A stretch of 62,120 bases of DNA from an uncultured bacterium (GCA_903862465.1 CAIOYH010000068.1:66280-128399); one strand, 5' to 3'. Positions 343-53,145 are shown, numbered from the stretch's first letter. Numbers and translations: made by a program. The notes: generated by a model from the letters alone, not told the origin.

Positions 343-577
343 ATCAATGTACGTTTTATGACAATCAATGTACATAAAATGACGATCAATGTACGTTTTA
401 TGACAATCAATGTACGTTAGATGGCAATCAATGTACGTAAAATGGCGATCAATGTACGTAAAATGACGATCAATGTACGTAAAATGACGATCAATGTACG
501 TGAGATGACGATCAATGTACGTGAGACGACAATCAATGTACGTGAGATGACAATCAATGTACATTAAATGACGATCA
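343..577. repeat. Tandem array A1: 11 x 21 bp, consensus ATCAATGTACGTAAAATGACG
   Basis: ATCAATGTAC starts at 343, 364, 385 ... 553 (exact 21-bp steps), with a partial unit at 574; substitutions only. Confidence 0.97.
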
Positions 578-629
578 GTTTTCGTCTCTCATCACATAGA
601 AGTCAAAACTCGACTCCAAATAGACATTC

Positions 630-1271
630 TTAAAACTTCACAAAAAAAGCCAAAACCCCCAACACCACCAAAACGCCTCCTGTGATGAGGCGTTCGTGAT
701 GTTCGAGGAAATGGGAGTTTATGCGCTGTGTGCCTTTTATGCCTATATAGACTAGCACCAACATCAGCATGACGGTGGTTAGGGTATATACCGCCGAAAC
801 AATAAAGATGCCGTTCCAACCTATCAAACCGGCTTGAAAGTAATAGGCTTCGATTTCGATGCAGGGCGTCAAAAACATGGCTAGGCTCAAACTGCTGAGG
901 ATGGCAACCTTCGATTTGGTGTTGCTGCGGCTTTTGGGCATGCCGTGTTCGTGATGATGATGGTGGTGGTGATGGTTCGAGATAAAATTCACGATGATAT
1001 ACACCAAGCCTATTCCCACTAAAATGGCGGGCGCGATATAGGTCATGATTACGTTATAGCTGTCGGCGAGTTTGATGCCCACAAAGCCTACAATGATGCC
1101 AATTATCACGGTGCTCAGGGTATGCGCAAAGCCCGTGATGGCGGTGGCGCCCAAGGTTTCGCTCACAGTCCATTTCTCTGTTTTGCCAATGGCGATGAGC
1201 GGTATCCAATGGTTGGGAATGGAGGCATGTATCAAACTCAAGAGAAGACTGCCGATGAATATTTGCCACAT
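630..1271 (-). CDS. His-rich multi-pass membrane protein, nickel/cobalt transporter-like (HoxN/NixA/RcnA/UreH-like superfamily)
   Basis: About 6 hydrophobic segments; N-terminal HASIPNHW motif; HHHHHHHHEH loop; PCIE motif. Confidence 0.65.
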   Translation of the reverse strand: MWQIFIGSLLLSLIHASIPNHWIPLIAIGKTEKWTVSETLGATAITGFAHTLSTVIIGIIVGFVGIKLADSYNVIMTYIAPAILVGIGLVYIIVNFISNHHHHHHHHEHGMPKSRSNTKSKVAILSSLSLAMFLTPCIEIEAYYFQAGLIGWNGIFIVSAVYTLTTVMLMLVLVYIGIKGTQRINSHFLEHHERLITGGVLVVLGVLAFFVKF

Positions 1272-1295
1272 AATGTTGTGTTTTTTTGTTAATGA

Positions 1296-2273
1296 TTAAA
1301 GCGGTTTTTCCACCAAGAAATAAACTCCCGTGTTGATGACGCCTTCTTCTTTTATGTTGAAATTGCTTTGTTGAAACAGTTTGCGCCATCCTTTTGGGGA
1401 GGTCAACGATAAGCAAAATAGATTAAAGACCGAGAAAGTAGCAGCACTCGGAACAAAAACGACGAGCAAGAATTTGCCGCCCGGTTTCAACACTCTGTTG
1501 ATTTCTTTCAATCCGTCGAGTTTGTATTTGCCCAAATGGTCCATCATATAGGAGCTGATGGCAGCATCGAAGGTGGCGGTGGCGAACGAAATGTCGGTGA
1601 TGTCGCCTTGTTTGATTTCGACGCGGTCTTGGATGCCTGCAATTTTCACATTGCGTTCCAAGAGGGCTTTGCCTCCGTTTTCGATATAGTCGGAATCGAA
1701 ACGGTCGAAGGCAACGATGTGGCTGTTTTTCATCACTTTCGATAATTCGAGCGTGGTGCGTCCCGACCCGCAACCGGCATCGAGAATCAAATCGTTGTCG
1801 CCCGCAAACAAATCTACAAAAGGCAGGGTCATATAGGCGTCTCTCTTCGACTTCCGGAGCATATAATTCCCGGCAAACAAATTCAAGCTTATCAGAAAAA
1901 AGATTAAAGAAAGCCACACCAAGTTGGGATTGTAATAATATACCCATATAGTTGCCATCAAGAAAACACTGCCGATGAGCCAATAGATGTTCATCCATCC
2001 ATAGGACCATCCAAAATAGAGTTTGCCTTCGAGTTTGCGCATCTTGCGCTTTTCAAATAAATTGTATTTCAGTTTTTCGGGCGAGATAAAATACGCCGAG
2101 ATGAGCAGGGTGCACGCAATGATGATATGCGCTAATGCAAATAAAAATACCATGCCCGAGAAGACTTTCAATTGTGGCAGATGGATGTAAATCATCACTG
2201 CTACGATAATTCCTACCACGCCCATGATCCATGGATGACCATGACCTTTTCCTTTTTTTTCTGTTGTTTTCAT
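1296..2273 (-). CDS. Class I SAM-dependent methyltransferase with N-terminal transmembrane domain
   Basis: LDAGCGSGRT motif I, GDITDISF and LKPGGKF motifs; about 4 TM segments in the first 135 aa. Confidence 0.85.
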   Translation of the reverse strand: MKTTEKKGKGHGHPWIMGVVGIIVAVMIYIHLPQLKVFSGMVFLFALAHIIIACTLLISAYFISPEKLKYNLFEKRKMRKLEGKLYFGWSYGWMNIYWLIGSVFLMATIWVYYYNPNLVWLSLIFFLISLNLFAGNYMLRKSKRDAYMTLPFVDLFAGDNDLILDAGCGSGRTTLELSKVMKNSHIVAFDRFDSDYIENGGKALLERNVKIAGIQDRVEIKQGDITDISFATATFDAAISSYMMDHLGKYKLDGLKEINRVLKPGGKFLLVVFVPSAATFSVFNLFCLSLTSPKGWRKLFQQSNFNIKEEGVINTGVYFLVEKPL

Positions 2274-2337
2274 AAGTTTGTTTTTTTGGTTAAATCTCTT
2301 TGTGGCTTTGCAGCCGATTAGTAATTATGGTGAGATT

Positions 2338-3276: not shown

Positions 3277-3329
3277 GGATGTTGGTTTTTTGATGTTTGC
3301 TGTTACATTATATATATTGTATGATTACA

Positions 3330-6576: not shown

Positions 6577-8736
6577 ATGGCAAAAGAAAAATCATCCAAG
6601 GCTAAATCCAAAAACACCGGCACCACTTCGCTCGTGTTGAATGTTTTCTATAAACATCCTAGTGTGGCTTTGAATTATAAACAAGTATCGAAAGCACTCA
6701 ACATTAACGACAAAAGCGCCCGCGAACTTGTTATCAAACAACTTGATATTTTGGTCAGATGTAATAGTTTGATGGAAGACAAGCACGGCAAATACAAATT
6801 AAATCCCGAAAAGCATGCTTCCTATTTTCCGAAGAACACCTACGTGGTGGGCACGGTGGATATGAAATCAACAGGCAAAGCCTATATTATTTCGAGCGAG
6901 CTGACCGAAGATGCTTATGTGGCACCTTACAACACGAATCGTGCGCTGAATGGCGACACGGTGAAAATATTATTGTTGCCACGCCGCAGCGGCAAAAAAC
7001 CCGAAGGACAGGTGGTGGAAATCATCAAACGCGCCAAAGAGAAGTTTGTGGGCATATTGCAGGTGAGCAAATATTATTCGTTTTTGATTCCCGATAGTCA
7101 TAGTGTCAATGTAGAGATTTTTATTCCGAACGATAAAATCCTCACAGCGAAACATGGCGACAAAGTGTTGGTGAAAATCACCGAATGGCCCGACAATTCG
7201 AAAAATCCTTTTGGGGAAGTCATCAGTGTGTTGGGCAAGCCGGGCGAAAATCAGGTGGAAATGCAATCTATCATCGCTGAATATGGTTTTCCGTTGAAAT
7301 TTCCCGACAAGGTGGAAAAAGATGCGGCAAATATCCCCCTCACCATATCCAAAGAAGAAATAAAAACCCGTCGCGATTTCCGTCAAATTTTTACTATCAC
7401 AATTGATCCCGAAGATGCCAAAGACTTTGACGATGCCATTTCTTTACAAAAATTAGCCAACGGCAATTGGGAAGTGGGCATTCATATTGCCGATGTGTCG
7501 CATTATGTGAAAGAAAACACCGAGCTTGATCAGGAAGCTTATGAACGCGCCACATCTATTTATATGGCTGACCGCGTGGTGCCCATGTTGCCCGAAGTTT
7601 TGTCGAACAATGTATGTTCGTTGAAACCTCATGAAGACAAACTCTGTTTTTCGGCAGTTTTCGAAATGACCGATGGGGCGCAAATTGTGGGACAATGGTT
7701 CGGAAAAACCATCATCAACTCCAATCATCGTTTCAATTATGAAGAAGTGCAACTCATCATCGAAACGGGACAGGGACTGCATTGCGACGAAATTGCTACC
7801 TTCAATCGCCTGGCAGGCATTTTGCGTGAAAAACGTTTCGCCAACGGCTCTTTTGCTTTCGACACCGAGGAGGTGCGCTTCAAATTGGACGAAACAGGTA
7901 AACCGATCGAAGTTTTTATCAAGCAACAAAAAGATTCCAACAAATTGATTGAAGATTTCATGTTGTTGGCAAATCGCAAAGTGGCTGAATTGATTGGGCA
8001 TCCCGCCAACAACGCCATTCCGAAGACTTTTGTATATCGGATTCACGATAAACCTAACCCCGAAAAGCTGCATACGTTCACGCAATTTGTGGCGAAGTTG
8101 GGATATAAAATCAACGCAAAATCGAACAAAGCCATCGCCGATTCGTTCAACACCCTGTTCGAAAACATCAAAGGCAAAGGCGAAGAAAATATGATCAACC
8201 AACTCGCCATCCGCACCATGGCAAAGGCGGTTTATTCTACGGATAATATAGGTCATTATGGTTTGTCGTTTAAATATTATGCGCATTTCACCTCGCCCAT
8301 CCGTCGCTATCCCGATTTGATGGTGCATAGGTTGTTGGAGCGTTATATGCAAAATTTGCCTTCGGTGGATCAAGTCGTTTATGCCGAAAAATGCAAACAT
8401 TGTTCGGAGATGGAAAAATTGGCTGCCGACGCCGAACGCGCTTCTATCAAATATAAACAAGCTGAATTTATGCTCGACAAAATTGGACAGACGTTTCAAG
8501 GCAAAATCAGCGGGGTGAGCAAGTGGGGCATTTATGTGGAAATCATCGAAAACAAATGCGAAGGCATGGTGTCCATACGCGATATGGAAGACGATGCCTA
8601 TTATATAGATGAAGAAAACTACGTGGTGATTGGGCAATACAGCGGCAAACGTTATCGCTTGGGCGACACGGTGAAGATACGGGTGAAGAAAATCAGTTTG
8701 GCGAAAAAGCAGATTGATTATGTGTTGTTGAAATGA
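6577..8736 (+). CDS. rnr: Ribonuclease R
   Basis: TIDPEDAKDFDDA catalytic motif, HFTSPIRRYPDL, C-terminal S1 domain. Confidence 0.97.
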   Translation: MAKEKSSKAKSKNTGTTSLVLNVFYKHPSVALNYKQVSKALNINDKSARELVIKQLDILVRCNSLMEDKHGKYKLNPEKHASYFPKNTYVVGTVDMKSTGKAYIISSELTEDAYVAPYNTNRALNGDTVKILLLPRRSGKKPEGQVVEIIKRAKEKFVGILQVSKYYSFLIPDSHSVNVEIFIPNDKILTAKHGDKVLVKITEWPDNSKNPFGEVISVLGKPGENQVEMQSIIAEYGFPLKFPDKVEKDAANIPLTISKEEIKTRRDFRQIFTITIDPEDAKDFDDAISLQKLANGNWEVGIHIADVSHYVKENTELDQEAYERATSIYMADRVVPMLPEVLSNNVCSLKPHEDKLCFSAVFEMTDGAQIVGQWFGKTIINSNHRFNYEEVQLIIETGQGLHCDEIATFNRLAGILREKRFANGSFAFDTEEVRFKLDETGKPIEVFIKQQKDSNKLIEDFMLLANRKVAELIGHPANNAIPKTFVYRIHDKPNPEKLHTFTQFVAKLGYKINAKSNKAIADSFNTLFENIKGKGEENMINQLAIRTMAKAVYSTDNIGHYGLSFKYYAHFTSPIRRYPDLMVHRLLERYMQNLPSVDQVVYAEKCKHCSEMEKLAADAERASIKYKQAEFMLDKIGQTFQGKISGVSKWGIYVEIIENKCEGMVSIRDMEDDAYYIDEENYVVIGQYSGKRYRLGDTVKIRVKKISLAKKQIDYVLLK

Positions 8737-8751
8737 ACAAAAACCTGCATA

Positions 8752-9059
8752 CATATTGCAGGGGTATGACATAGTCATCCCACAAATGTAAAATCATATT
8801 GCAGGGGTATGACATAGTGTTCGCGGAAACCCGCGGACATATTGCAGGGGTATGACATAGTGCTCGCGGAAACCTGCGGACATATTGCAGGGGTATGACA
8901 TAGTGCTCGCGGAAACCCGCGGACATATTGCAGGGGTATGACATAGTGTTCGCGGAAACCCGCGGACATATTGCAGGGGTATGACATAGTGTTCGCGGAA
9001 ACCCGCGGACATATTGCAGGGGTACGACATAGTGTTCGCGGAAACTTGCGAGCATATTT
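8752..9059. repeat. Tandem array A2: 43-bp period, 24-nt arm CATATTGCAGGGGTATGACATAGT plus hairpin GTTCGCGGAAACCCGCGGA
   Basis: CATATT at 8752, 8795, 8838, 8881, 8924, 8967, 9010, 9053. Six near-identical units; the first unit keeps the arm but has a different 19-mer. Confidence 0.97.
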
Positions 9060-9266
9060 CTAAATTTGACAAAAAACCAAAAGCCGCATTTAGCGCCATT
9101 TTCAGAGCGGTCAAAATAAAAACAGTCACTTGAAGAACAATATTTATACATATATAAAAATTTGCATCTTTGTCCTAAATATTTGCTCGTTTACCAAGTT
9201 TTTTCTCATATTTGGCGTTATACATATTACGCATGCTCTTATTATTCATTAATAAATAAATGCCTT

Positions 9267-9863
9267 ATGAAAAAACTAATTTTCTTCGCAATTGTATCTT
9301 ATTTGGTATTCACTTCCTGCACTCACCATTGTGCAGATTTCAATGCCGACATCCTCAGTTGGATGCCCTATAAAGTGAACGACACCATTTCTTTAAAAAA
9401 GAACAATCAAATTATTAAATTTGTTGTCACCAACACATTTATCAACCACACAGATAAATATTCCAAATCCTCCATGCGCAAATGCGGAGAATGTGACAAT
9501 TATTTTGGACTTGAAGCGGGTGATGCTAACACCTATATTTATTATGAGTCCTTCAGTGACCAAGACATCTCCCAATTATCTTTCAAAATTAAAGATAATG
9601 ACATGTCGGCAAACACTTATGATGGATTGAAAAACAAAACGCTGTTAAGCTCCATAACTATTGATACTGTTACGTATCAGGATGTGTTAGTCCTGTCGGG
9701 CGATGCTATCCTGCCCAACAATATTTGGAAAGTAGTTCTTGCTAAAAACAAAGGAGTTGTTGCCGCATACTATGGCGATTCGATAATGATCACACAGAAA
9801 AACATGATTAAATCAACAAGTGTGGAGGACTATAATTTGGTGAATGTTGATAATTGCAAGTAG
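9267..9863 (+). CDS. Hypothetical lipoprotein
   Basis: MKKLIFFAIVSYLVFTSC signal with lipobox (ATG 9267 preferred over the longer ORF-track start). Confidence 0.75.
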   Translation: MKKLIFFAIVSYLVFTSCTHHCADFNADILSWMPYKVNDTISLKKNNQIIKFVVTNTFINHTDKYSKSSMRKCGECDNYFGLEAGDANTYIYYESFSDQDISQLSFKIKDNDMSANTYDGLKNKTLLSSITIDTVTYQDVLVLSGDAILPNNIWKVVLAKNKGVVAAYYGDSIMITQKNMIKSTSVEDYNLVNVDNCK

Positions 9864-9947
9864 TTAGAATAGAAAAATTAGCGTTCGGCTTGTTGTTATA
9901 ATTCCACACAAAAACAATTTAGCAATATAACATTAAACAATAATCCC

Positions 9948-11444
9948 TTACTCTATCTTTCCCCCATCATAACTAATCTCCATGCCATCTTCAAAACGAA
10001 TGGTAATTATTTTCAAACCTTCATAGTCATAAATTGTCCAATCGCCTTCTTTTTGTCCCATAATATATTTTCCTTTTTCGCGCACTTTGCCATTGTCCCA
10101 ATAGGTGATATATTCTCCATTTAGGTTGCCTTCGGTGTAACTACACGAAAAATTCACCTCGCCCGTGGAGAAATAATATTTCCATTCGCCTTCGCGCAAA
10201 CCTTCCTGATAGGAGCCTACTTCCTTTTCGTCGCCCACTTGATAGGTCCACGGTCCGTCTTGTTTGCCTTCCACATATTCCCCTTCGAGAATCACGTTGC
10301 CCGAATCGGAAACTTCTTTATAATGTCCGTTTAAAACGCCCTTGGTGAGGTTATCTTCCTTGCGCAAATTTCCCGATTCGAAATACCATTTCCATTTGCC
10401 ATCGGGTTTGCCATTGGTGGCATAGATACCCGTTTGCTCCACTTTGCCGTCTTTATAATAAAATTTCCAAGCACCCTGCCGCAAACCGTTTTTATACTCT
10501 CCTTCGGCTTCTTTTTCGCTCGATTCATAAAACTCTTTCCATAAGCCCTGACGCAAGCCTTTTTCATCAACAATACCTTCGCCCACGATGATACCATTTT
10601 TGTAAACATAGGATTTCACCACTTGCCCTTCAGGCGAAAACTCGCGCCGTATGCCTTCGGGAATATCTTCTTTATAACTTTGTTGAATCTTCACCTTACC
10701 ATTTTTGTAATAATCGGTTTTAACGGTCAAGGTCTGCAATTCGGGAGCGTCATCTATCAAAATATCATTCTCATATTTCAAGATGGAAGTTAGATTGCCT
10801 TTGTTATCATATTCTTTGAAGTAGCCATCTTTTTTTCCATAGTTATAGACGCCTTCCGATTTTATTCTCTCATTTCCATAAAATGTCTTCCAAACCCCAT
10901 GCTCCAAACCATCGCGAAAACGATTTATCTTTTCGGTGTTGATGACATAGCCGCGTTTGTAATCTATCAAAGTGGTGATGCTGCCATCAGGCGAATATTC
11001 TATGCCCAATCCTTCTTCTCTACCATTGATGAAATTTACTTTTGATTTAATTTTTCCATTGGGATACAGATGATAGCTCGTGCTGTCTTTCACATCGTTT
11101 TTAAAATACTCTTCTATGGTTTCTGTCTTCAAATAGGTAGTCCGAAAACCATTCTTCTTGCCCAATTTATAGTTGATACATAGATTCAATTTTCCCGAAT
11201 CGCTATAAAACTTCCAAGTGGAATCTAATTCAAAATTTTTTCGAAACCCTTCTGATTTGATGACGCCATTTTCAAAATAGGTTTTCCAATAGCCGTTGGG
11301 TTTTCCATCTTTCATGGTGCCTTCGCTTGATATTTTTCCCGAAGGATAATAAAACGTGTTGTAGCCATTTTTTGTGATGGTGTCTTGAGCAAAGCTGCCA
11401 AAACTTAGAAACAAGATAAAAATCAGGAAGACATTTTTTTTCAT
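9948..11444 (-). CDS. Secreted MORN-variant/YwqK-like repeat protein
   Basis: Signal peptide; many G-x-W-x-x-Y/F-Y-x-x-G repeats. Confidence 0.85.
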   Translation of the reverse strand: MKKNVFLIFILFLSFGSFAQDTITKNGYNTFYYPSGKISSEGTMKDGKPNGYWKTYFENGVIKSEGFRKNFELDSTWKFYSDSGKLNLCINYKLGKKNGFRTTYLKTETIEEYFKNDVKDSTSYHLYPNGKIKSKVNFINGREEGLGIEYSPDGSITTLIDYKRGYVINTEKINRFRDGLEHGVWKTFYGNERIKSEGVYNYGKKDGYFKEYDNKGNLTSILKYENDILIDDAPELQTLTVKTDYYKNGKVKIQQSYKEDIPEGIRREFSPEGQVVKSYVYKNGIIVGEGIVDEKGLRQGLWKEFYESSEKEAEGEYKNGLRQGAWKFYYKDGKVEQTGIYATNGKPDGKWKWYFESGNLRKEDNLTKGVLNGHYKEVSDSGNVILEGEYVEGKQDGPWTYQVGDEKEVGSYQEGLREGEWKYYFSTGEVNFSCSYTEGNLNGEYITYWDNGKVREKGKYIMGQKEGDWTIYDYEGLKIITIRFEDGMEISYDGGKIE

Positions 11445-15198: not shown

Positions 15199-15315
15199 TT
15201 TTTTTTGTGGAAAACAATTTTAAGGTCCAACCAACAGCAGGTATAGATGATGATGGTATATTCATAAATACATCCGAAATCGTACTTGAAATGGTCTTGC
15301 TGATCGAAACCCTCC

Positions 15316-15527
15316 AATGCAGTTGTATATGCCCATCCCTGCCGAGGGTGATGCACTAATACAGTTGTCGGGGATAGTTCCGCACGAGCGGAATGCTCCA
15401 ATACAGTTGTCGGGGATAGTTCCGCACAAGCGGAATGCTCCAATACAGTTGTCGGGGATAGTTTCGCACGAGCGGAATGCCCCAATACAGTTGTATAGGA
15501 TAGTTTCGCACGAGCGGAATGCTCCAA
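15316..15527. repeat. Tandem array A3: 42-bp period, consensus AATACAGTTGTCGGGGATAGTTCCGCACGAGCGGAATGCTCC
   Basis: Units at 15358, 15400, 15442, 15484, plus a divergent unit at 15316; internal hairpin TTCCGC-ACGA-GCGGAA (stem substituted to TTTCGC in the last two units). Confidence 0.95.
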
Positions 15528-15595: not shown

Positions 15596-15697
15596 AATCT
15601 CCTAAAAATAAATATCTCAAATCTGCCTGCAGGAGTTTATATCATTAAAATTCTTCCCGATAAAAGCAGGTTTCGGCAGAAGGTTATTAAAGAATAA
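15596..15697 (+). pseudogene. Orphan T9SS type-A C-terminal sorting-domain remnant
   Basis: Reads NLLKINISNLPAGVYIIKILPDKSRFRQKVIKE*, the typical CTD ending, but has an in-frame TAA at 15593 and no start codon. Confidence 0.7.
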
Positions 15698-15753: not shown

Positions 15754-16086
15754 ATGAATACACAACAAATGAATCGGAACAGTCCCCTTATGATAACCAT
15801 AAAACAATTGGTGCATAATGTAGCACCCAATGCTAAAGTGATAGTGTATGGTTCGTATGCGCGTGGGGAACAAACAAGCAATTCGGATGTAGATCTGTTG
15901 ATATTGCTCGATAAAAATATCGTAACGTTTAAGGAGGAACAACAAATTAAGTCGCCTTTATATGATTTAGAATTTGAAACGGGACAGATTATTAGTCCGC
16001 TTATATTATCTCAAATTGCTTGGGAACAAAGGCACCGTATCACCCCGTTTTATGATAATGTTTCTAAAGAAGGAATAGAATTATGA
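15754..16086 (+). CDS. MNT (minimal nucleotidyltransferase) antitoxin
   Basis: YGSYARG...SDVDLL motif, 110 aa, 4-bp overlap with the HEPN gene. Confidence 0.92.
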   Translation: MNTQQMNRNSPLMITIKQLVHNVAPNAKVIVYGSYARGEQTSNSDVDLLILLDKNIVTFKEEQQIKSPLYDLEFETGQIISPLILSQIAWEQRHRITPFYDNVSKEGIEL

Positions 16087-16481
16087 ACTCTGACGACATA
16101 AAAGAACTAGTTGCATATCGTCTCCAACGGTCGAAAGAGACCAAAGCCGAAGTGCCGACTTTAATAAAACTTGGATATTATAACACGGCGGTCAACAGAA
16201 TTTATTATGCCTGTTTTTATGCCGTAAATGCTTTATTACTGAAAGATGGAATAGCAGCCAAAAGGCACGATGGAGTGCGACAAATGTTAGGATTACACTA
16301 CGTTAAAACAGGTATGATACCCAAAGAGCTTGCCAAGTATTATACAGATTTATTTGATAGGCGCCAAACGGGGGATTATGATGATTTCCTTGACTATGAC
16401 AAAGAAACGGTTGAAGAATTGTATAAACCCGCCAATGATTTTATCAAGGCGATTGAAGACATAATCTCTACTAAAATGTAA
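16083..16481 (+). CDS. HEPN-domain toxin (MNT-HEPN toxin-antitoxin pair)
   Basis: AVNRIYYACFYA, KRHDG and RQTGDYD motifs; coupled to MNT. Confidence 0.9.
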   Translation: MNSDDIKELVAYRLQRSKETKAEVPTLIKLGYYNTAVNRIYYACFYAVNALLLKDGIAAKRHDGVRQMLGLHYVKTGMIPKELAKYYTDLFDRRQTGDYDDFLDYDKETVEELYKPANDFIKAIEDIISTKM

Positions 16482-34391: not shown

Positions 34392-34407
34392 TGTTTCACG
34401 TGAAACT
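34392..34407. promoter_or_regulatory. parS centromere site 2
   Basis: TGTTTCACGTGAAACT immediately after the mnmG stop, 15/16 match. Confidence 0.9.
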
Positions 34408-34414
34408 ATAAAAA

Positions 34415-35308
34415 ATGGAACAAATAAATACCTGTGCAATTTGTGGAAAAGGCAACTTTTCTGTTTACTTAGAAAGCAGCGATTATTTTTTAAGTAAAGA
34501 AAGGTTTACTATTGTAACCTGCGACAATTGTGAATTTTTGTTTTTGAATCCACGCCCCGATGCGGTGGAAATTTCTAACTATTATAAATCGGAAGAATAT
34601 ATTTCTCATTCAAATACAAAAAGAGGAGTAATAAATAAAGTTTATCATATTGTTCGGAAAAGAAATCACAAAAAAAAATACAACTTAATTCAAAATCTCA
34701 AAAATAAGGGGACACTTCTAGATATAGGTTGCGCTACTGGGGAATTTATAAATTACTGTAGGAATAACGGATGGACAGTAGCGGGTGTTGAACCTGACGA
34801 GGATGCTCAAAAGTTTGCAAAAACACAATATAATTTAAATGTGTACCCCGAAAGTTTATTAAAAGAAATTCCAACAAATAAATTTGATGTGATTAGTATG
34901 TGGCATGTTTTAGAGCATGTTCATCTACTTGAGCAGAGAATTATGCAGCTTAAAATGTATTTAAAAAACGATGGGGTTGCTATTATTGCAGTGCCAAATG
35001 CAGCGTGTAAGGATGCGGAAATTTATAAAGAGTTTTGGGCGGGGTATGATTTGCCGCGCCACCTTTATCATTTTACAAAGAAATCAATTTTAGAACTTTT
35101 TAAAAAAAACGACTTTGCTTTAATTGAAACCATACCTATGAAATTCGATTCGTATTATATTAGTATGTTGAGCGAAAAATATAAAACGGGGACGGGCAAT
35201 GTGGTAAAGGCGTTTTTAAATGGTTATAAATCGAACAGGTGGGCAAAAAGAAATAATAACAATTATTCAAGCCAGATATTTATATTAAAGAAGAATAACG
35301 TCAAATAA
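34415..35308 (+). CDS. Class I SAM-dependent methyltransferase with N-terminal Zn-ribbon-like Cys pairs
   Basis: CAIC...CDNC, LDIGCATG, WHVLEH, PRHLYHF motifs. Confidence 0.88.
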   Translation: MEQINTCAICGKGNFSVYLESSDYFLSKERFTIVTCDNCEFLFLNPRPDAVEISNYYKSEEYISHSNTKRGVINKVYHIVRKRNHKKKYNLIQNLKNKGTLLDIGCATGEFINYCRNNGWTVAGVEPDEDAQKFAKTQYNLNVYPESLLKEIPTNKFDVISMWHVLEHVHLLEQRIMQLKMYLKNDGVAIIAVPNAACKDAEIYKEFWAGYDLPRHLYHFTKKSILELFKKNDFALIETIPMKFDSYYISMLSEKYKTGTGNVVKAFLNGYKSNRWAKRNNNNYSSQIFILKKNNVK

Positions 35309-35425
35309 AGCGTTTAAACAAAATATGTCCCCACTGTAATATGTATTGCTGTTTTATTTAAAAAAACCTTTCAGGCGCTTTAATTTTAAGCCAAAATTTC
35401 TCAACAAGTTACAGTTTGAAAAACA

Positions 35426-38400
35426 ATGATTGAAAAAAAGAGTATCTTAAAAAGAATTTTTTTAGTTTTAGGCGTTGTCGTATTTTTAGTCTTTGTAAAT
35501 CTAATTTTAAAAAAACAGTTTTTGTCTTCACAAAATGATAGTGAGACGAAAACTAAGAATATTGAAAATATATTAAGAGAGAAAGAAAAACTTTCAATTA
35601 ATAATTTAGAAAAACTTGTCAGCAAGTCCGAAAATAATTTAGCGTATCTTTTATTTAGTGATAAAAACTTGTCAAGGCTATATGATGACGAAAAGATTTC
35701 TTTCTTTTTGTATAGAAGCGATAGCTTAGTCTATTGGTCAAGTAATACTGTTTCGTTGGATTCAATTCAACAGGATAAGATATCTGACAGTTGTTTTGTT
35801 AAATTATCAAACGGGTGGTACGAATTAATAAAGAGGGGAAAAGGCAATCTTATTGTCATTGCAGCAATTTTAGTTAAATCTGAATATAAATACGAAAACG
35901 ACTATCTTCTTAATGACTTTAATGATGATTTCTGTATTTCAGCAGAGAATGCAACGGTTTCTAAAACAGGGAAGCAATTTATAATAAAAAATTATGAAGG
36001 AAAATCACTTTTTTCCATAGCATATAAAACCAATCCATTTTTAAGCAATTTGCTTGAGATTATTATTTTTATTCTTTATCTTTATGCATTTTTAGCATTA
36101 TTGTATTTGGTGTACTTAATGTGTTTCGTTTGTTTTATTAATCCGTCACAAGTAGGCTTTAGAAAGCTTGCTTTTTTAATATTAATTGTGATTGCAAGGA
36201 TATTGCTTTTTTATTTCAAAATTCCTCATGATTTATACAATTTCAAAGTATTTAGCCCGATATATTTTGCGTCATCAGAATGGTTGCCATCACTTGGCGA
36301 TCTTTTAATAAACACAATAATACTTTTCACTATTGCAGTGTTTTTATACAAGAACCCGTTTTACGAACAGATTAAAATACTCAATAAATGGATTTCGATA
36401 CTTCTTTCTTTTTCACTTTTTATTTTCTCTGCGCTTCTGTTTTTCTTTGTTATTGACCTACTTCATTCAATCGTTATTGATTCTACAATTTCATATAATT
36501 TGAATCAGCTTTTTGCAATTAATTTCTTAAGCATATTAGGCTTTTTCATCATTTCGCTTACTATTGTATCTTATTTTTTGATAAGTCACTCGATTATTGA
36601 CTTTTTATTTTATTCAACTAATAAAATTATTCACTTATTGACTGGAGTTCTTCTTGCATGTCTTCTTCTTTTTATACTTCATCCGTATAATTCATTTCAT
36701 GACATACAAATTATACTTTGTTTTGTTGTTTTCAATGGTATTTATTTATTCTTTCGATTTAGCAAGGGCAATAAATTTCTTTTTTATGAAATTGTAATTT
36801 ATTTACTATTGTTTACGTATTTGACATATTATACTATAAATAAATGTAATACTATTAAGGAAATAGAAAAGAGGAAGTCATTCGCACAAAAATTGTCTTC
36901 AGGAGAGGACCCTTTAGCTGAATATATTTTTCGTAATACTCAAAAAGATATTTTAGCGGATAGCATTTTAAAGCAGAAACTCGCCAAGCATTTATTAACT
37001 GAAAATGATATAAGTGATTATGTTACTAAAAAGTATTTTTTTGGATATTGGGATAAGTATAAAATACAAATAACAGTTTGCAATAATTATGATTGCCTGC
37101 TTATTGAACAAACCCAGGAAAAACGAAATTGTATTATGTATTTTGATGATTTGATACGAAGTCTCGGTAAAAACACAAGTTGTAAAAATCTATTCAGTAT
37201 TAACGATGGAAGTGGGGGAAACAATTATGTTTCGAAATTTGAATTTAATGTGGATTCTTCGTCTATTTTCGTATTTATAGAATTGAATTCGAAGTTTATT
37301 CCGAAAGACTTGGGTTATCCAGAACTGCTAATTGATAAAAAACTTTTTATTAATACAGACTTATCGAGTTATTCTTATGCAAAATACGTGAATAATACAT
37401 TGATTGATGCTTATGGAAAGTATTACTATTCATCATCCTTTTTTGTTCAAGATTCTAGAAGTATAGAGGAAACGTATGTTTTCAATAAAGATGGGTATAA
37501 TCATATGTTATATAAGATTGACAACAATTCATTTCTAATAATAAGTAAAAAAAACGGGAATGTGCTTGATACCCTTGCGCCCTTTTCAATAATCTTTACT
37601 ATATTTTGTATCACACTAATATTCGTTTTAGTCATTTCTAGTTTTTCATCTAATGTAAAACTTATACAATTTGATTTTAGAAATCGGTTACAAGTTTCAA
37701 TGGTTTCTATTATTTTAGTTTCCTTTATAATTATTGGAATTTCAACTTATTATTTTATTAGGAATTTAAATGACAACAAAAACACTGATATTTTAAGCGA
37801 AAAAGCCATGTCAATTCTTCTTGAGTTACAACCGGGTATGTATGAATTCGATACGATAAACAATGATCAGCAAATGGCGTTGTCTAATCGGTTGAATAAA
37901 CTGTCAAACGTGTTTTTTACTGACATAAATGTATTTGATATAAAAGGAGATTTGATTGCGTCGTCTCGTTCTCAAATATTTACAGAGGGCTTAATTTCAA
38001 AGAAAATGAACTCCTTAGCTTACCGTCAAATGATTACTGAGAAAACGACACAGTTTATACAAAAAGAGAAAATAGGGAAATTGGAATATTTCTCTGCTTA
38101 TGTTCCTTTTTATAATAGAAAAGGGAAGGTCTTGTATTATGTAAACCTACCCTATTTTGCGAAAGAAAGTGAGTTAAAAAAAGAGTTCTCCTCTTTTCTT
38201 ATAGCATTTATAAATATCTACCTATTCTTGATAGCAATGACGGTATTAATTGCATTGTTCGTAGCAGGACGAATTACTCGTCCCCTAAATATTATTCGAG
38301 AAAAGATTAGCAATTTGAAACTTGGCATCAAAAATGAAAAGATTAATTGGCCAAGGAGGGATGAAATTGGCAGTCTAATTTCTGAATACAATAGAATGAT

Positions 38401-39127
38401 AGATGAACTCTCAAATAGTGCAGGACTTCTTGCTCGTTCAGAAAGAGAAATTGCATGGCGCGAGATGGCAATGCAAGTAGCTCATGAAATAAAAAATCCA
38501 TTAACCCCAATGAAATTGAGTGTACAATATTTAGATAAAGCATGGAAAGATAAAGCACCTGATTGGGAAATACGGCTTGAGAGGTTTACTAAAAATATGG
38601 TGGAACAAATAGATTCGCTATCTACTATTGCCTCGGAATTTTCTTATTTTGCAAAGATGCCTGAGCCTCATAATGAAATTATTTCTCTTACTGATATTGT
38701 AAAAAGTTCCGTAGAAATTTTTAAATCTAATTCAAATATCAATGTTTATTTAGTTTATAGCACACTAGAAAACATTAAAATATTTGCTGACAAAAAGCAA
38801 ATAATGAGGATATTAAATAACCTATTAAACAACGCAATACAAGCGATTAAAAGTAATATCCAAGGAAATATCGAAGTGGGAATTTCTACACGTGAAGGGA
38901 AAGTACTTATTTATATCAAGGATAATGGCGAAGGGATCCCGGATGAAATGAAAGATAAAATTTTCATTCCAAATTTCTCTACAAAATCTGAAGGAATGGG
39001 CTTAGGTTTAGCGATTGTAAGTAGTATAATTGAGAATTATGATGGACGAATTTGGTTTGAATCAAATACTGAAGAAGGAACAACCTTTTTTATTGAATTG
39101 CAACTATATGAATCTGGTAAGGATTAA
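35426..39127 (+). CDS. Large multi-TM sensor histidine kinase (HAMP, HisKA, HATPase)
   Basis: DEIGSLISEYNRM (HAMP), AHEIKNPLTP (H box), NLLNNAIQA, DNGEGI, FSTKSEGMGLGL; no cognate response regulator adjacent. Confidence 0.93.
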   Translation: MIEKKSILKRIFLVLGVVVFLVFVNLILKKQFLSSQNDSETKTKNIENILREKEKLSINNLEKLVSKSENNLAYLLFSDKNLSRLYDDEKISFFLYRSDSLVYWSSNTVSLDSIQQDKISDSCFVKLSNGWYELIKRGKGNLIVIAAILVKSEYKYENDYLLNDFNDDFCISAENATVSKTGKQFIIKNYEGKSLFSIAYKTNPFLSNLLEIIIFILYLYAFLALLYLVYLMCFVCFINPSQVGFRKLAFLILIVIARILLFYFKIPHDLYNFKVFSPIYFASSEWLPSLGDLLINTIILFTIAVFLYKNPFYEQIKILNKWISILLSFSLFIFSALLFFFVIDLLHSIVIDSTISYNLNQLFAINFLSILGFFIISLTIVSYFLISHSIIDFLFYSTNKIIHLLTGVLLACLLLFILHPYNSFHDIQIILCFVVFNGIYLFFRFSKGNKFLFYEIVIYLLLFTYLTYYTINKCNTIKEIEKRKSFAQKLSSGEDPLAEYIFRNTQKDILADSILKQKLAKHLLTENDISDYVTKKYFFGYWDKYKIQITVCNNYDCLLIEQTQEKRNCIMYFDDLIRSLGKNTSCKNLFSINDGSGGNNYVSKFEFNVDSSSIFVFIELNSKFIPKDLGYPELLIDKKLFINTDLSSYSYAKYVNNTLIDAYGKYYYSSSFFVQDSRSIEETYVFNKDGYNHMLYKIDNNSFLIISKKNGNVLDTLAPFSIIFTIFCITLIFVLVISSFSSNVKLIQFDFRNRLQVSMVSIILVSFIIIGISTYYFIRNLNDNKNTDILSEKAMSILLELQPGMYEFDTINNDQQMALSNRLNKLSNVFFTDINVFDIKGDLIASSRSQIFTEGLISKKMNSLAYRQMITEKTTQFIQKEKIGKLEYFSAYVPFYNRKGKVLYYVNLPYFAKESELKKEFSSFLIAFINIYLFLIAMTVLIALFVAGRITRPLNIIREKISNLKLGIKNEKINWPRRDEIGSLISEYNRMIDELSNSAGLLARSEREIAWREMAMQVAHEIKNPLTPMKLSVQYLDKAWKDKAPDWEIRLERFTKNMVEQIDSLSTIASEFSYFAKMPEPHNEIISLTDIVKSSVEIFKSNSNINVYLVYSTLENIKIFADKKQIMRILNNLLNNAIQAIKSNIQGNIEVGISTREGKVLIYIKDNGEGIPDEMKDKIFIPNFSTKSEGMGLGLAIVSSIIENYDGRIWFESNTEEGTTFFIELQLYESGKD

Positions 39128-46311: not shown

Positions 46312-48915
46312 ATGAAAAGAATAATTCTAGCACTATTATTTCTTCCAACTGTTGCATGGGCACAGGTTCAAGACGATTTTTCTGATGCGAATTTCACGGC
46401 AAATCCTGCATGGCATGGCGATAGTTCGCAATTTCAAATTTCCACCTATTCCAATTCTTCTTGGAGCGACGCGCCCCGCCTGCAATTGGATGGGACTGTT
46501 GCCGACACTTCTTGTTTGTATATAGCCACATCCTTGCCGACGCTGAATAATATGGAGTGGGATTTTTGGGTACGATTGACGCTGAACACCTCGAAGTCGA
46601 ATAATTGCCGCGTGTATTTGGTTTCCGATAAGGCGAACTTACATGGAAGCCTCAATGGGTATTTTGTGATGTTTGGCGACGATGAGAACGACCAACTTGA
46701 TAGTATTTCTTTATGGGAACAAAATGGAAACATCACGCAAAAGTTAATAGCAGGTCATCATTGTTTCACGGGAACATCTTCTTCTTACGGCATTAAAGTG
46801 CAACGTGATAATGCAGGGGTTTGGTCTTTGTTTGCAAGTCAAAACGGCTCTACAAACTATACGTTGGAGGGATCGTGCCTCGACAATACCTTCACGAGTT
46901 CGTCCTATTTTGGTATTTATTGCAAATATACTAGCACAAATAAGACAAACTTTTATTTTGATGATATCTATATCGGACCAAAGATAGTGGACACTGTGCG
47001 CCCTACGGTTCTGTCTGTAAACGTTATTTCTGCGAATCAAATTGATATCACCTTTTCGGAGAATGTGGATCCTATTACGGCGGAAACAGTCACCAATTAT
47101 AATGTTTCAACCTTTAGCTTTCCGCTATCTGCTGCCGTGGAGGGCTGTGTGGTGCATTTGGTGTATGCTTCTGCGTTTTTAGCCGGGAACACCTATACTA
47201 TGGGCATTGCAAATGTTCGAGATTGCGCTGCGAATCCCATGCTTCCTGTTTCTGTTCCTTTTAGCTTTTATAAAACGCAAGGATATGATATTGTGATAAA
47301 CGAAATAATGGCAGACCCCGACCCGCCTATGGGTTTGCCCAATTATGAGTACATTGAGTTGTTTAATAAATCGGCATATCCCATTAATATAAACCATTGG
47401 AGCCTCGACATCAATACTTCGCATGCTAGTTTGCCGAATGTCACTTTGGCGCCCAATGCTTATGCTATCATTTGCGATGAAGAAGCTGAGGATTTATTTC
47501 TTCCGCACGGTACCACTATCGGCATCCCCTCACTTTCGCTTACCAATACAGGCGCCACTATCGCCCTGCGCAACGCAGCGGGAAGCCTAATCCATTTTGT
47601 CACTTATTCCGACGCTTGGTATCAAAACGCTAACAAAGCGGATGGCGGATGGTCTTTGGAGCAAATTGACGCCAACAATCCCTGCGGGGGCATTGCCAAT
47701 TGGAAGCCATCCACAGATCCAAGTGGCGGGACTCCCGCTCGGCTTAATTCCATTATGGGTAGCAATCCCGATATCTCTCCTCCGAAATTAATCAGAGCTT
47801 CTGCATCACGGTATGAACCCCTGCATGCCAAGCTATTCTTCGACGAGCCATTGGACAGTGCTTTTATGGACAATCTTACGAAATATGAAGTGGATAATGG
47901 TATCGGGAATCCACTTTCCATAGTGTTTAGCAAACCTGATAACGCCTCTGCCACGCTTTTCTTTTCGCAGGAGCTTCTCCCCCATATTGTTTACACCCTT
48001 CGCATAAGCGATAGCATTTTTGATTGCTCGGGCAACAAAATCCCTGCGAATTCAACGGTTCGGTTTGCGCTGCCCGAACTTCCCGACTCAGGTGATTTGG
48101 TCATCAATGAGGTGCTTTCGAATCCAAAGGACGATGGCGTTGACTTTGTCGAGGTTTATAATCGTTCCGAAAAGGTGTTGGATTTTATGGATATAAACCT
48201 AGCATCTATGGATGATACGCGCATCATTACCAACGATAACTTCTTGATTTTTCCGAAGGATTATGTGGTTTTGACCACCAATCCCGATAAAGTGAAAGAG
48301 CAATATACAAGCCCCAATCCCTATTCGTTTATCAAGATGGAGTCCTTGCCAACCTATAATAATGATGAAGGGACCGTTATGTTGACCACCAAGGCAGATG
48401 CCGTGATAGATGCCATGACCTATACTGCCGATATGCATTTCCCGCTGCTGAACACCACGGATGGCGTATCCTTGGAACGCATAGATTTTAATCGTCCCGC
48501 AAGCGACATCACGAATTGGCATTCGGCGGCAGAGACAGTGGGTTTTGCTACGCCTGCTTATGAAAACTCGCAATTCTTTCCCGAGAATTTTGAGGATGAC
48601 ATGGCAGTTTCTGTTGAACCTGAAATTTTTTCACCCGATAATGATGGGTATAACGATATATTGAACATCAATTGTCAAGCGGCAAGTCCGGGTCGCGTGG
48701 TTTCTATAATAATTTACGATGCAAAAGGACGCCTAGTGAAGTCGCTTGTGAAGAGCAAAATGATGTCAGAAAAGGCTAGCTTTTCGTGGGATGGCACTCG
48801 GGACGATGCCACCAAGGCGAACATTGGAATTTATGTGATTTATGTGGAGAGTTTCGATTTGAGCGGTTCGGTGAAACATTATAAACGCACGGCGGTGTTG
48901 GCAACGAAGTTCTAA
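46312..48915 (+). CDS. Secreted lamin-tail/Ig-like (Big_5) protein with type-B T9SS C-terminal domain
   Basis: Signal peptide; two VINEIM/VINEVL...EYIEL/DFVEVYN lamin-tail motifs; C-terminal FSPDNDGYND...WDG...GIYVI. Confidence 0.85.
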   Translation: MKRIILALLFLPTVAWAQVQDDFSDANFTANPAWHGDSSQFQISTYSNSSWSDAPRLQLDGTVADTSCLYIATSLPTLNNMEWDFWVRLTLNTSKSNNCRVYLVSDKANLHGSLNGYFVMFGDDENDQLDSISLWEQNGNITQKLIAGHHCFTGTSSSYGIKVQRDNAGVWSLFASQNGSTNYTLEGSCLDNTFTSSSYFGIYCKYTSTNKTNFYFDDIYIGPKIVDTVRPTVLSVNVISANQIDITFSENVDPITAETVTNYNVSTFSFPLSAAVEGCVVHLVYASAFLAGNTYTMGIANVRDCAANPMLPVSVPFSFYKTQGYDIVINEIMADPDPPMGLPNYEYIELFNKSAYPININHWSLDINTSHASLPNVTLAPNAYAIICDEEAEDLFLPHGTTIGIPSLSLTNTGATIALRNAAGSLIHFVTYSDAWYQNANKADGGWSLEQIDANNPCGGIANWKPSTDPSGGTPARLNSIMGSNPDISPPKLIRASASRYEPLHAKLFFDEPLDSAFMDNLTKYEVDNGIGNPLSIVFSKPDNASATLFFSQELLPHIVYTLRISDSIFDCSGNKIPANSTVRFALPELPDSGDLVINEVLSNPKDDGVDFVEVYNRSEKVLDFMDINLASMDDTRIITNDNFLIFPKDYVVLTTNPDKVKEQYTSPNPYSFIKMESLPTYNNDEGTVMLTTKADAVIDAMTYTADMHFPLLNTTDGVSLERIDFNRPASDITNWHSAAETVGFATPAYENSQFFPENFEDDMAVSVEPEIFSPDNDGYNDILNINCQAASPGRVVSIIIYDAKGRLVKSLVKSKMMSEKASFSWDGTRDDATKANIGIYVIYVESFDLSGSVKHYKRTAVLATKF

Positions 48916-48918
48916 ATT

Positions 48919-51531: not shown

Positions 51532-51535
51532 GTTA

Positions 51536-51543
51536 CAAAAGTA
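51536..51543 (-). promoter_or_regulatory. -7 promoter element of the R-M operon, possibly giving a leaderless mRNA
   Basis: TACTTTTG on the minus strand; its final G (51536) is 5 nt before the A of the endonuclease ATG (51531). Confidence 0.55.
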
Positions 51544-51819
51544 ATAAAAATATTAATTCGTTTCATTGTTTTTTTTAGTTGTCCCAAACCTTCAGAATAG
51601 TAACCACCTTTAGGTTAAACGGCAAAAACCACTTCTATTTATTGCTCCATTCTTTCTATAATTCTATATATAAACAAAATTCTTCCACAAAGATACATAT
51701 TTCTAATCACATCCTATCAACTAATTTTACGAATCAAACTAAAAATGAAATCTGTCATTAATTCAGTTTTTAAAAAGTGCTTATTTTTAAAGCGTATTAT
51801 TTTTTTGTACTAAAATGCA

Positions 51820-52380
51820 TTAATCCTTAAATTCAAAAACTAATCGAAAACGTGAATTCCCAACATCATCTTTATATAATTCTTTCTTTTCAATAAAGCT
51901 TGGCGTTAATTTACTACGAAGGTAAAATCCTAAAAAGGCAATTGTAAATGAAACGGCGATAAACAATATCCCAATTAAAAGTACAATTATGAATCTAATG
52001 GTCTCCATACCTTCCGCAGATACTAAAAGTTGTTGAATTCCAGGAAAAAGTCCATATAATCCGGCAATACATGCCCAACCATAATATCGAGCTTTATGTG
52101 TTGCTGCAAAATAAATCATGGGTGCGGTCCAAATAATTCCTACGAAACTTTGCGATAAAACTAATAATAGAATCAAAATAGAAAGTAGAACAAGAAATAG
52201 AATGTGTAAAAATTTATATTTTGTCAAAGCCCGAGCCGATGGCTGAGACTGTATAATGCTTGCAATTTTTAGTCCCCCATGAAATTCTTGATTTAGCTCT
52301 TCGTAAATTGCTTGCTTCGAAACACCAAGTTTGATTTTTTCTTGCGCTAGTTTTTTAATTTGCTTATTATCAATTGTCAT
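51820..52380 (-). CDS. Hypothetical membrane protein (about 4 TM)
   Basis: 186-aa AT-rich ORF; soluble N-terminus followed by hydrophobic segments. Confidence 0.75.
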   Translation of the reverse strand: MTIDNKQIKKLAQEKIKLGVSKQAIYEELNQEFHGGLKIASIIQSQPSARALTKYKFLHILFLVLLSILILLLVLSQSFVGIIWTAPMIYFAATHKARYYGWACIAGLYGLFPGIQQLLVSAEGMETIRFIIVLLIGILFIAVSFTIAFLGFYLRSKLTPSFIEKKELYKDDVGNSRFRLVFEFKD

Positions 52381-52587
52381 TCAATAATTATTTTTTCAAA
52401 GTTAAACAAAAATACGTGGCTAAAGTGTTATTGTCTTTTTCTAGCATTGTCTATAAGTCTTTTATTTATACTATAAGCTAACATAAAGCCATCCAATTTC
52501 ATCCCCTTTTATATCCCAACAAAATTACTTATTTTTCAATCAACTCCTATTTTATTTTACATTAAATATTTTGCATCCCCTATAAGG

Positions 52588-53145
52588 AAAATGTTAGGTA
52601 TTATAACGGCAACCATTATCGTTATAATGACTACCATTATCGTTGTAACGGCAACCATTATCGTTATAACGGCAACCATTATCGTTATAACGACTACCAT
52701 TATCGTTATAACGGCAACCATTATCGTTATAACGACTACCATTACCATTGTAACGACTACCATTGCCATTATAACGACTACCATTATCGTTATAACGACT
52801 ACCATTGCCATTATAACGACTACCATTATCGTTATAACGACTACCATTGCCATTATAACGACTACCATTAACATTATAACGACTACCATTATCGTTATAA
52901 CGACTACCATTATCGTCATAACGACTACCATTATCGTCATAACGACTACCATTATCGTTATAATGACTACCATTGCCATTATAACGACTACCATTGCCAT
53001 TATAACGACTACCATTGCCATTATAACGACTACCATTATCGTTATAACGACTACCATTGCCGTTATAACGACTATCATTAAAATTATAACGCCTAACATC
53101 ATCGTTGTAACGACAATGCTAGGCGTTGTAATTCCTAAATATTTT
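52588..53145. repeat. Tandem array A5: 22 core + 4 degenerate units of 21 bp, consensus ACCATTATCGTTATAACGACT, with inverted termini
   Basis: ACCATT every 21 bp from 52612 to 53053; palindrome CGTTATAACG in the main variant; ends AAAATGTTAGGTATTATAACG (52588) and CGTTGTAATTCCTAAATATTTT (53124) are near-inverted copies. Confidence 0.98.

Follow-up and report, generated by a model that had tools for sequence, protein, structure and literature searches.

Bacterial tandem repeats of constant size and variable sequence, reportedly described by Subirana and Messeguer in the Journal of Bacteriology, have been in print since 2020 without a known function or partner. In 2021 the same authors reported repeats of 20-21 (20-23) nt in many phyla and of 52 nt in Firmicutes, with several families per species, a few repeats of 40-41 nt, a non-coding location and an enigmatic function, for which they suggested either a protein whose polymerisation on DNA depends on a constant repeat size or small RNAs (Subirana and Messeguer 2021, PMC8161180). 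The sopC site of plasmid F contains 12 repeats of 43 bp, and SopB binds a 16-bp inverted repeat that is present in each of them (PMC3177203); iterons, which are bound by Rep, have a spacing of about 22 bp (PMC4980987). Here we analyse five tandem arrays in a stretch of 62,120 bp (the window; C68:66280-128399 of assembly GCA_903862465.1) from an uncultured Bacteroidales bacterium, together with the genome around it, which is an extreme case with about 300 arrays beside defined candidate partner proteins. The reading that we prefer, tentatively and with somewhat less than even confidence, is that the arrays are double-stranded DNA on which a protein assembly docks at phased sites, with a unit length that comes from the size of the reader and from helical register.

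Period spectrum of the arrays

The source genome is a short-read metagenome-assembled genome (MAG) of 4.23 Mb in 230 contigs, with a G+C content of 39.6%, in which genes were called with our own open reading frame (ORF) heuristic. Its RNase R is at best 79% identical to that of an uncultured Bacteroidales bacterium, and SusC-type receptors and TAnnTTTG motifs were found. The original prediction, made from the sequence of the window, had described five arrays with periods of 21, 43, 42, 22 and 21 bp and no indels. Tandem Repeats Finder (TRF) recovered all five in the same places, each with 0% indels, and direct reading of their sequences showed a strict register in which only substitutions vary. 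All five are intergenic. CRISPR arrays were rejected as an identity, since the units abut head to tail and no unique spacers separate them.

For the genome-wide analysis, arrays with at least 4 copies and a TRF score of at least 100 were counted, which gave 356 arrays out of 1179 repeat clusters. The period was 21 bp in 224 arrays, 42 bp in 47, 43 bp in 18, 20 bp in 9, 41 bp in 4 and 22 bp in 3; no array had a period of 10 or 32 bp, periods of 11 and 31 bp were found once each, and no comparable peak occurred elsewhere (n=356). A tabulation of periods across the genome had been proposed as the check on phasing, and it bore the expectation out, with peaks at 21 and 42-43 bp and almost nothing elsewhere. 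The class with periods of 20-22, 41-43 or 63 bp comprised 307 arrays, which amount to 72 kb, 1.7% of the genome DNA, at a density of 7.3 per 100 kb; 98 of the 307 adjoin contig ends in this short-read assembly. The median copy number was 10 in 21-bp arrays and 5-6 in 42/43-bp arrays. Genome-wide, 72-78% of arrays were indel-free and 25% carried indels. The argument first drawn from the absence of indels is thus weaker than supposed, also because an indel in one unit shifts the phase and leaves the period unchanged.

The 42-bp class was mixed. Sixteen of 53 42-mers were dimers of diverged 21-mers, akin to higher-order patterns of 63 and 84 bp, and the rest were genuine. The genuine long class, in which the two halves of a unit are unrelated, contained about 4 arrays of 41 bp, 33 of 42 bp and 20 of 43 bp, and its mean of about 42.3 bp fits four turns of 10.5-10.6 bp better than twice a rigid 21. 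Unit length is constrained, and the periodicity is lineage-specific, extreme and a multiple of 21 rather than of 10.5.

The 222 units of period 21 fell into families of at most six members, with 90 singletons. A Gibbs sampler that allowed for rotations and both strands found no strong motif common to the units (6.25 bits, against 5.2-5.4 bits for shuffled units), and the slight excess arises because small unit families exist. Dyads with a stem of at least 6 bp were present in 9.5% of 21-mers (null 2.5%), 39% of 42-mers (12%) and 60% of 43-mers (10%). Arrays showed no preference among tandem, divergent and convergent intergenic regions, their shares being equal to background. Intrinsic DNA curvature was also considered and rejected, as no A/T autocorrelation was seen within units at a lag of 10-11, the value being slightly negative if anything.

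That 21 and 42 are multiples of 3, and that ORFs cross arrays 1, 2, 3 and 5 on one or both strands, could suggest that the arrays encode heptad peptide repeats of 7 or 14 residues. Almost any 21-mer repeat is, however, open in some frame by chance, and periods of 43, 22, 20 and 41 bp belong to the same class. Of the 307 arrays, 293 were intergenic and outside longer ORFs. At variable positions a period-3 signal was absent (0.515, with 0.515 in the null); the arrays are therefore non-coding, and an origin as peptide repeats is effectively refuted.

Gene families and transcription signals beside the arrays

The nearest ORFs on either side of every array were clustered, and the clusters were then extended by hidden Markov model (HMM) iteration and hhalign. 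Several paralogous families of small orphan proteins, here called module families, proved strongly enriched beside arrays. An array was adjacent in 28 of 35 members of family 1 (about 205-256 aa), in 11 of 16 members of family 2 (about 320 aa), in 7 of 7 members of family 4 and in 6 of 11 members of family 6, and families 10, 11, 12 and 13 followed suit. The short and long forms of family 1 together with F10 and F11 constitute superfamily S1, with 35 of its 47 members array-adjacent; F6, F12 and F5 constitute superfamily S2, to which F2 is weakly linked, and F4, F13/16 and F23 stay separate.

The period class follows the gene family (family 2 versus S1, Fisher p = 5.7e-11). All 11 arrays adjacent to family 2 genes had a genuine period of 41-43 bp, 10 of them upstream of the gene, whereas none of 36 arrays adjacent to S1 genes was genuinely long, 35 having periods of 20-22 bp and one being a 21-mer dimer. 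Within S1 the side of the array differs with protein length: in members of about 205 aa it lies 120-175 bp upstream, and in most of the longer ones, of about 225-256 aa, 27-190 bp downstream. Protein identity among S1 members and similarity of their units were uncorrelated, save that the closest pairs shared 14-15 of 21 positions; in paralogs with 50-70% protein identity the units had diverged to randomness. The link of constant-size repeats to gene families appears to be new.

An AlphaFold2 model of the S1 protein encoded in the window (predicted local distance difference test, pLDDT, 85) had an N-terminal helical bundle and a C-terminal Fn3 domain, and a family 2 model (pLDDT 88) had two helices of about 60 residues and a beta-sandwich; the longest S1 helix measured 33 residues, against about 60 in family 2. 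For S1, Foldseek searches of PDB and BFVD returned Fn3 domains alone; for family 2 they gave no meaningful match. The nearest sequence relatives of the S1 protein of the window were 11 metagenome proteins, and a profile search of 1.84 billion proteins was dominated by multi-Fn3 giants. A tblastn search with the S1 protein gave zero matches among 72,556 plasmids and 50,697 phages. A plasmid or phage origin was rejected on this result and on the chromosomal housekeeping context of the arrays.

S1 profile copies numbered 49 in this genome and 35, 35, 30, 27, 23, 23, 18 and 9 in eight members of the genus, against 0-1 in nine other members and 0 in the sister genus; two genomes from other families of the order had 3-4. 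Among 30 S1 loci in 10 genomes, 24 had a 21-, 42-, 63- or 84-bp array no more than 1.5 kb away, and every one of these arrays has a unit of its own; the two genomes from other families of the order are among the sources. Sampled DNA contained no arrays in 518 kb from four S1-free relatives and eight in 473 kb from four S1-bearing relatives; under equal density in both groups, the chance of zero arrays is about 1.5e-4. The S1-free sample came from other genus members and a sister genus, and within the genus the arrays occur in a sub-clade. A search of 700 kb flanking the RNase R gene in 80 other Bacteroidota yielded one weak array of 3.2 copies of 21 bp, so that the arrays of this genome far exceed both chance and the level in other Bacteroidota. 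The arrays are confined to relatives that carry expanded orphan gene families, and their distribution is patchy and lineage-specific.

Promoters and terminators were called by low-sensitivity consensus scans. Where the array lies upstream of the gene, TAnnTTTG, the Bacteroidetes -7 motif, was found in the array-gene spacer in 41% of cases and upstream of the array in 13%, which equals background, and a terminator-like site occurred in the spacer in 1 of 70 arrays. Where the array lies downstream, 15% of cases had a terminator-like site after the stop codon and ahead of the array (all-gene control 5%), none had one beyond the array, and a promoter motif for the next gene followed in 30%. Base composition of the arrays showed no skew relative to the gene strand. 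The arrays are thus predicted to lie outside the transcript of the neighbouring module gene, which argues against a layout like that of ToxIN. Taken with the absence of strand skew and with the dyads, the transcription signals are signs of a role at the level of DNA rather than RNA.

It seems doubtful, on these data, that the arrays act as RNA, through a transcript of their own, possibly antisense, that binds or sponges the module protein in the manner of a type III antitoxin or CsrB, or that is cut into 21- or 42-nt units. Many 42/43-nt units, including those of arrays 2 and 3, could form hairpins, and the stem difference between two tail variants of array 3 (CC/GG versus TT/AA) looks compensatory. 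Private array sequences accompany private proteins and unit length tracks the protein family, both of which are hallmarks of type III toxin-antitoxin (TA) pairs. A promoter motif that is no more frequent than background upstream of the arrays, and terminator-like sites in the spacers of just 1% of upstream arrays, are nevertheless hard to reconcile with such a transcript, as are a composition without strand bias and an array side that varies by subfamily. The protein fold is unlike that of ToxN/AbiQ, an Rfam scan of the window gave no matches to known RNA families, and unit lengths in a 2:1 ratio with a 42/43 split have no obvious RNA rationale. Transcription has been proposed by Subirana and Messeguer (PMC8161180) and reported by them for the 52-nt class, the satellites of Bacillus coagulans (PMC8625621).

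The five arrays, their turnover and their copying

Array 1 (343-577; 11.2 copies of 21 bp, 87% matches) has the unit ATCAATGTACGTAAAATGACG, with the palindrome TACGTA inside it and a higher-order pattern of 63 bp. It lies 115 bp upstream of a minus-strand orphan gene for a 318-aa protein of F12 in superfamily S2; the 5' part of this gene occupies 1-228 on the minus strand of the window, and the gene extends past the left edge (C68:65551-66507). Members of F12 combine a helical region with a prealbumin/CarboxypepD_reg-like beta-sandwich, and all three have an array upstream.

Array 2 (8751-9058) comprises about 7 units of 43 bp, of which 5.8 near-perfect copies occupy 8795-9058 and are preceded by a variant first unit. 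The 24-nt head of that unit is as in the main units, and its 19-nt tail is unrelated but equally long. The main units contain the hairpin or dyad CGCGG-AAACC-CGCG. The array starts 14 bp past the stop of RNase R, in an interval that is hypervariable among strains. Array 3 (15351-15527) has 4.2 copies of 42 bp; a variant founder unit begins at about 15311, so that the whole array spans 15311-15527. Its unit opens with the constant head CCAATACAGTTGT and closes with ATGC; the 24-nt tail between them contains the dyad TTCCGC-ACGA-GCGGAA. Between array 3 and the next gene, at 15620-15697 on the plus strand, an open stretch that reads NLPAGVYIIKILPDKSRFRQKVIKE up to its stop looks by eye like the terminal part of a C-terminal sorting domain for type IX secretion; no gene body precedes it, and a gene disrupted at this locus may have left it behind.

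Array 4 (25602-26097; 22.5 copies of 22 bp) has the unit GGAGCTATATAGGTGCATCGTC with the palindrome CTATATAG, and starts 90 bp past the stop of an F23 orphan gene (24808-25512, plus strand, 234 aa, no Pfam match); the TAnnTTTG promoter motif of the next gene, for a DUF4175 protein (26311-29667), comes after the array. Array 5 (52601-53114; 24.5 copies of 21 bp) has the unit TTATAACGACTACCATTATCG, and a 10-bp palindrome, CGTTATAACG, arises across its unit junctions. It lies 62 bp past the stop of an S1-family orphan gene (53176-53946, minus strand, 256 aa), and a terminator-like hairpin with an 18-bp stem (53088-53127, minus strand) separates that stop from the body of the array. A palindrome or hairpin is present in five of the five units (TACGTA; CGCGG..CCGCG; TTCCGC..GCGGAA; CTATATAG; CGTTATAACG).

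Close strains provide natural experiments in which the unit sequence has been replaced and its length kept. At the array 4 locus, G010 (flanks 91-94% identical) has the same gene and the same 22-bp unit in 11.6 copies, against 22.5 here. In G017 the ortholog of the F23 gene (237 aa) is followed by an array of 5.6 copies of 43 bp with a different sequence, G011 has a different 21-bp array of 12.4 copies and no ortholog, and G005 has a degenerate array of 3 copies of 21 bp. The interval 8737-9947, between RNase R (6577-8736) and a MORN-repeat gene (9948-11444), is a strain-variable hotspot. Here it holds the 43-bp array and a lipoprotein-like ORF (198-233 aa); G011 has the array alone, with two unit variants in another order; and in G017 and G005 it measures 841 bp, with no array in the TRF results for their loci. 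In G010, whose RNase R is 99% identical, a 3.4-kb insert carries a different 21-bp array of 14 copies, an orphan gene for a 319-aa protein that from its sequence probably consists of a helical region and a beta-sandwich, a TPR-like gene and a putative VapBC-like pair.

At the array 3 locus, G000 and G010 (flanks 96-97% identical) have in common the founder unit, the head CCAATACAGTTGT and the closing ATGC. Their tails are unrelated, both exactly 24 nt long and each with its own dyad, and G011 has a third, unrelated 42-bp unit. The array 5 ortholog has the same unit in G011 and differs at about 6 of 21 positions in G010, both arrays reaching a contig end. In these comparisons, sequence and copy number turn over faster than the flanks, and unit length stays the same to the base.

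Units recur at 2-6 loci, and 53 of 89 same-unit pairs share a one-sided abutting flank of 80-350 bp; the arrays have therefore spread through segmental duplication. A gene-less array at C81:3162 has a flank that matches the right flank of array 5, made up of the spacer and the S1 gene's 3' end, and some gene-less arrays are therefore relics of modules. A model of one gene-adjacent array per unit family fitted 18 of 31 clusters against 14.2 expected, a suggestive excess that is not significant (p = 0.12). A common CRISPR-like leader was considered and rejected: a cluster of 167 flanks proved to be an artefact of neighbouring repeats, and after cleaning only small flank families remained, in part because of a REP-like hairpin with 23 copies that is described below.

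On another view, the arrays would be functionless or selfish minisatellites, whose period was inherited from ancestral arrays that were duplicated with module genes and has been kept by concerted evolution without being read by anything. Shared abutting flanks and relic arrays beside gene remnants, such as that at C81:3162, suit this view; copy number varies freely among strains, and plain 21-mer dimers make up 16 of the 53 42-mers, as higher-order homogenisation predicts. Units have, however, diverged to randomness while 95% of the short class is still exactly 21 bp long, although under neutrality fixed indels should have spread the periods, and unrelated tails of exactly equal length are found at 96% flank identity. 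Arrays have also been kept beside S1 genes across different families of the order, and their G+C content of 39.7% equals the genome average, whereas we would expect ordinary intergenic DNA to be more AT-rich. We regard a neutral origin as improbable. If nothing reads the spacing, the strict conservation of length needs a new mutational explanation.

The original prediction had offered, beside binding sites, a fixed-length template copied by an enzyme acting in trans, and had suggested a search of the genome for a reverse transcriptase (RT) or a REP-associated tyrosine transposase (RAYT; REP, repetitive extragenic palindrome). The genome contains one RVT_1 gene (C180:14046-14663, in a 440-aa open frame) and four Y1 transposase genes, so that candidates exist, but neither tracks the arrays. 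RT presence was uncorrelated with arrays across 31 relatives: the array-rich G013 and G014, with 23-27 S1 genes, had no RVT_1 match, and the array-free G002, G007, G015 and G018 had RTs. Both RT and RAYT were rejected as the copying enzyme, which removes the only concrete candidates for the template idea and leaves that half of the prediction unsupported.

A REP-like double hairpin, AAGTCGGAGTGCGACTCCAAGTCGCGCCCCGACT, occurs in 23 copies in the genome, 22 of them intergenic (examples, among loci L187-L194, are C152:4194-4443, C190:118-367, C23:44141-44390 and C184:23463-23712). The distance to an array is at most 150 bp for twelve copies, where 4.2 would be expected. No copy was found in the window or on the contigs of the four Y1 transposase genes. 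REP/RAYT elements were rejected as the identity of the arrays, which are tandem direct repeats and have a REP-like hairpin nearby in 14 of 307 cases.

A mechanism of copying or slippage that brings its own 21-nt ruler, be it an RT, a RAYT-type enzyme or a step of the replisome or of repair, would explain why unrelated sequences have the same period, and could draw on the RT and Y1 transposase genes and on the excess of REP-like hairpins near arrays. The mismatch between RT distribution and arrays, the lack of REP-like copies on the Y1 contigs and the small share of arrays near one make it very unlikely. A strict 21-nt ruler moreover predicts units of 42 bp and not the common genuine 43, leaves the gene-family-specific period class unexplained, and finds no common leader beside the arrays.

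The statement that no polymerase is encoded in the window carries one caveat. A nucleotidyltransferase gene of the Pol-beta superfamily (NTP_transf_2, 15754-16086) adjoins array 3; we tentatively take it, from its size and from the 132-aa ORF that overlaps it, to encode an MNT-type antitoxin and not a templated polymerase. The overlapping pair (15754-16481), of which the nucleotidyltransferase (NTP_transf_2/Polbeta) accounts for 110 aa, lies directly downstream of array 3 and looks like an MNT/HEPN-type TA system.

Further features of the window stand apart from the arrays. The region 34000-38000 is AT-rich (27-30% G+C, against 40%) and spans the start of a sensor kinase gene (35426-39127; 1233 aa, HAMP/HisKA/HATPase), which lies near mnmG (32517-34391) and a methyltransferase gene. 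The protein encoded at 46312-48915, 867 aa long, carries lamin-tail, Big_5 and CHU_C (type IX secretion) domains. A weak repeat of 2.6 copies of 21 bp at 57005-57059 is coding, inside the gene for an 1869-aa alpha-2-macroglobulin (55552-61161), and is unrelated to the arrays.

Proposed explanation and comparison with described systems

If the arrays are docking sites, they would act as double-stranded DNA, and one unit would be one site of two or four helical turns, often with a short dyad. A protein would assemble along the array unit by unit and in register. Candidates for this protein are the adjacent, fast-evolving orphan protein, with its helical bundle and Fn3 domain or beta-sandwich, and a shared host factor. 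Selection on register would hold the unit length, while unequal crossing-over, gene conversion between arrays and cassette replacement would bring about the fast turnover of sequence and copy number. Binding of the arrays by a protein, the identity of that protein and the role of the complex are all parts of this proposal that we infer. The suggestion of binding sites on one helical face, the other option of the original prediction, is compatible with the position of the arrays outside the predicted transcript, the absence of strand bias, the dyads and the 42/43 split, but it is unproven and also incomplete. A same-face rule permits one, three and five turns as well, and only two and four occur; something else therefore sets the unit size, most likely the size of the array reader.

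That gap is the first of several points that weigh against docking sites. The module proteins have no recognisable nucleic-acid-binding fold, and searches of Pfam, PHROG and NCBIfam with the module families gave no matches except a weak CarboxypepD_reg signal in S2. Median isoelectric points were 8.9 in S1, which is mildly basic, and 6.1 in family 2, which is not basic. Among the 209 arrays with both neighbours known, only 88 had a module-family neighbour, to be compared with 15% of all intergenic gaps, and relaxed HMM searches among the remaining array neighbours found no hidden module members. In the window itself, neither array 2, whose neighbours are RNase R and the lipoprotein-like ORF, nor array 3, whose neighbours are an IPExxxVDY-family gene and the nucleotidyltransferase, adjoins a module-type gene. 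Most 21-mers lack a clear dyad (dyads in 9.5-23%, against 39-60% of 42/43-mers). Finally, the low sensitivity of the promoter and terminator scans and the transcription reported for the 52-nt satellites count on the same side, and the arrays may be transcribed independently or in antisense.

A more far-reaching proposal would make the orphan genes and their arrays a previously unrecognised chromosomal module. In it, the length of a unit would follow from the physical size of the protein, at about 21 bp in the Fn3 family S1 and 42-43 bp in the long-helix family 2. Diversifying selection would drive array and protein to diverge together, as in a system of identity, incompatibility or conflict, and the enigmatic constant-size repeats of many phyla would be explained. 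We consider this unlikely. Should a protein assembly indeed read the spacing, bacterial chromosomes would turn out to carry phased nucleoprotein elements of a new kind.

Type III TA systems (ToxIN, CptIN, TenpIN) resemble the loci described here in that an array of short units stands beside the gene for a small protein, array and protein have private sequences that seem to vary together, and unit length is characteristic of the protein family. They typically have 2-6 units of about 34-45 nt, whereas 21-nt units are present here in 10-24 copies. The loci also differ in having a promoter motif between array and gene and almost never a terminator in the spacer, in that the array may be downstream, and in folds that are unrelated to ToxN by AlphaFold2 and Foldseek. 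Variable-number tandem repeats (VNTRs) or minisatellites, such as the mycobacterial interspersed repetitive units (MIRU), are intergenic, vary in copy number among close strains and have periods that are arbitrary for each locus. The present arrays share the intergenic location and the strain-variable copies, as in array 4 (22.5 versus 11.6), but about 300 loci fall here into one period class.

With sopC and the iterons, the arrays have in common repeats phased at about two or four helical turns, a sequence private to the replicon and a variable copy number; dyads, which those systems have in each unit, are enriched here but present in only part of the units. There the gene for the binding protein lies beside the array; here the neighbouring gene encodes only a candidate binder. 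In contrast to those systems, no ParA/ParB, Rep, ribbon-helix-helix (RHH) or winged helix-turn-helix (wHTH) protein was recognised (no matches in Pfam, NCBIfam or PHROG), the fold is a helical bundle with an Fn3 domain, and hundreds of arrays lie among chromosomal housekeeping genes. Partition or replication arrays were accordingly rejected as an identity, as were type III TA loci.

The closest match is the class of Subirana and Messeguer, every defining feature of which is found in the arrays described here: a size common to many arrays, an unconserved sequence with several small families in one genome, a non-coding location, a patchy taxonomic distribution and a minor class of double size. 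The present arrays differ in that the double size is a genuine 42-43 bp and not 40-41, and in belonging to an uncultured Bacteroidales genus in which they are unusually dense (7.3 per 100 kb). The 2021 text mentions no neighbouring genes, whereas the arrays here are tied to expanded orphan families. To the published description this analysis adds the coupling to gene families, a period class that follows the family, the genuine 42-43 bp class and the replacement of unit tails by others of equal length among nearly identical strains.

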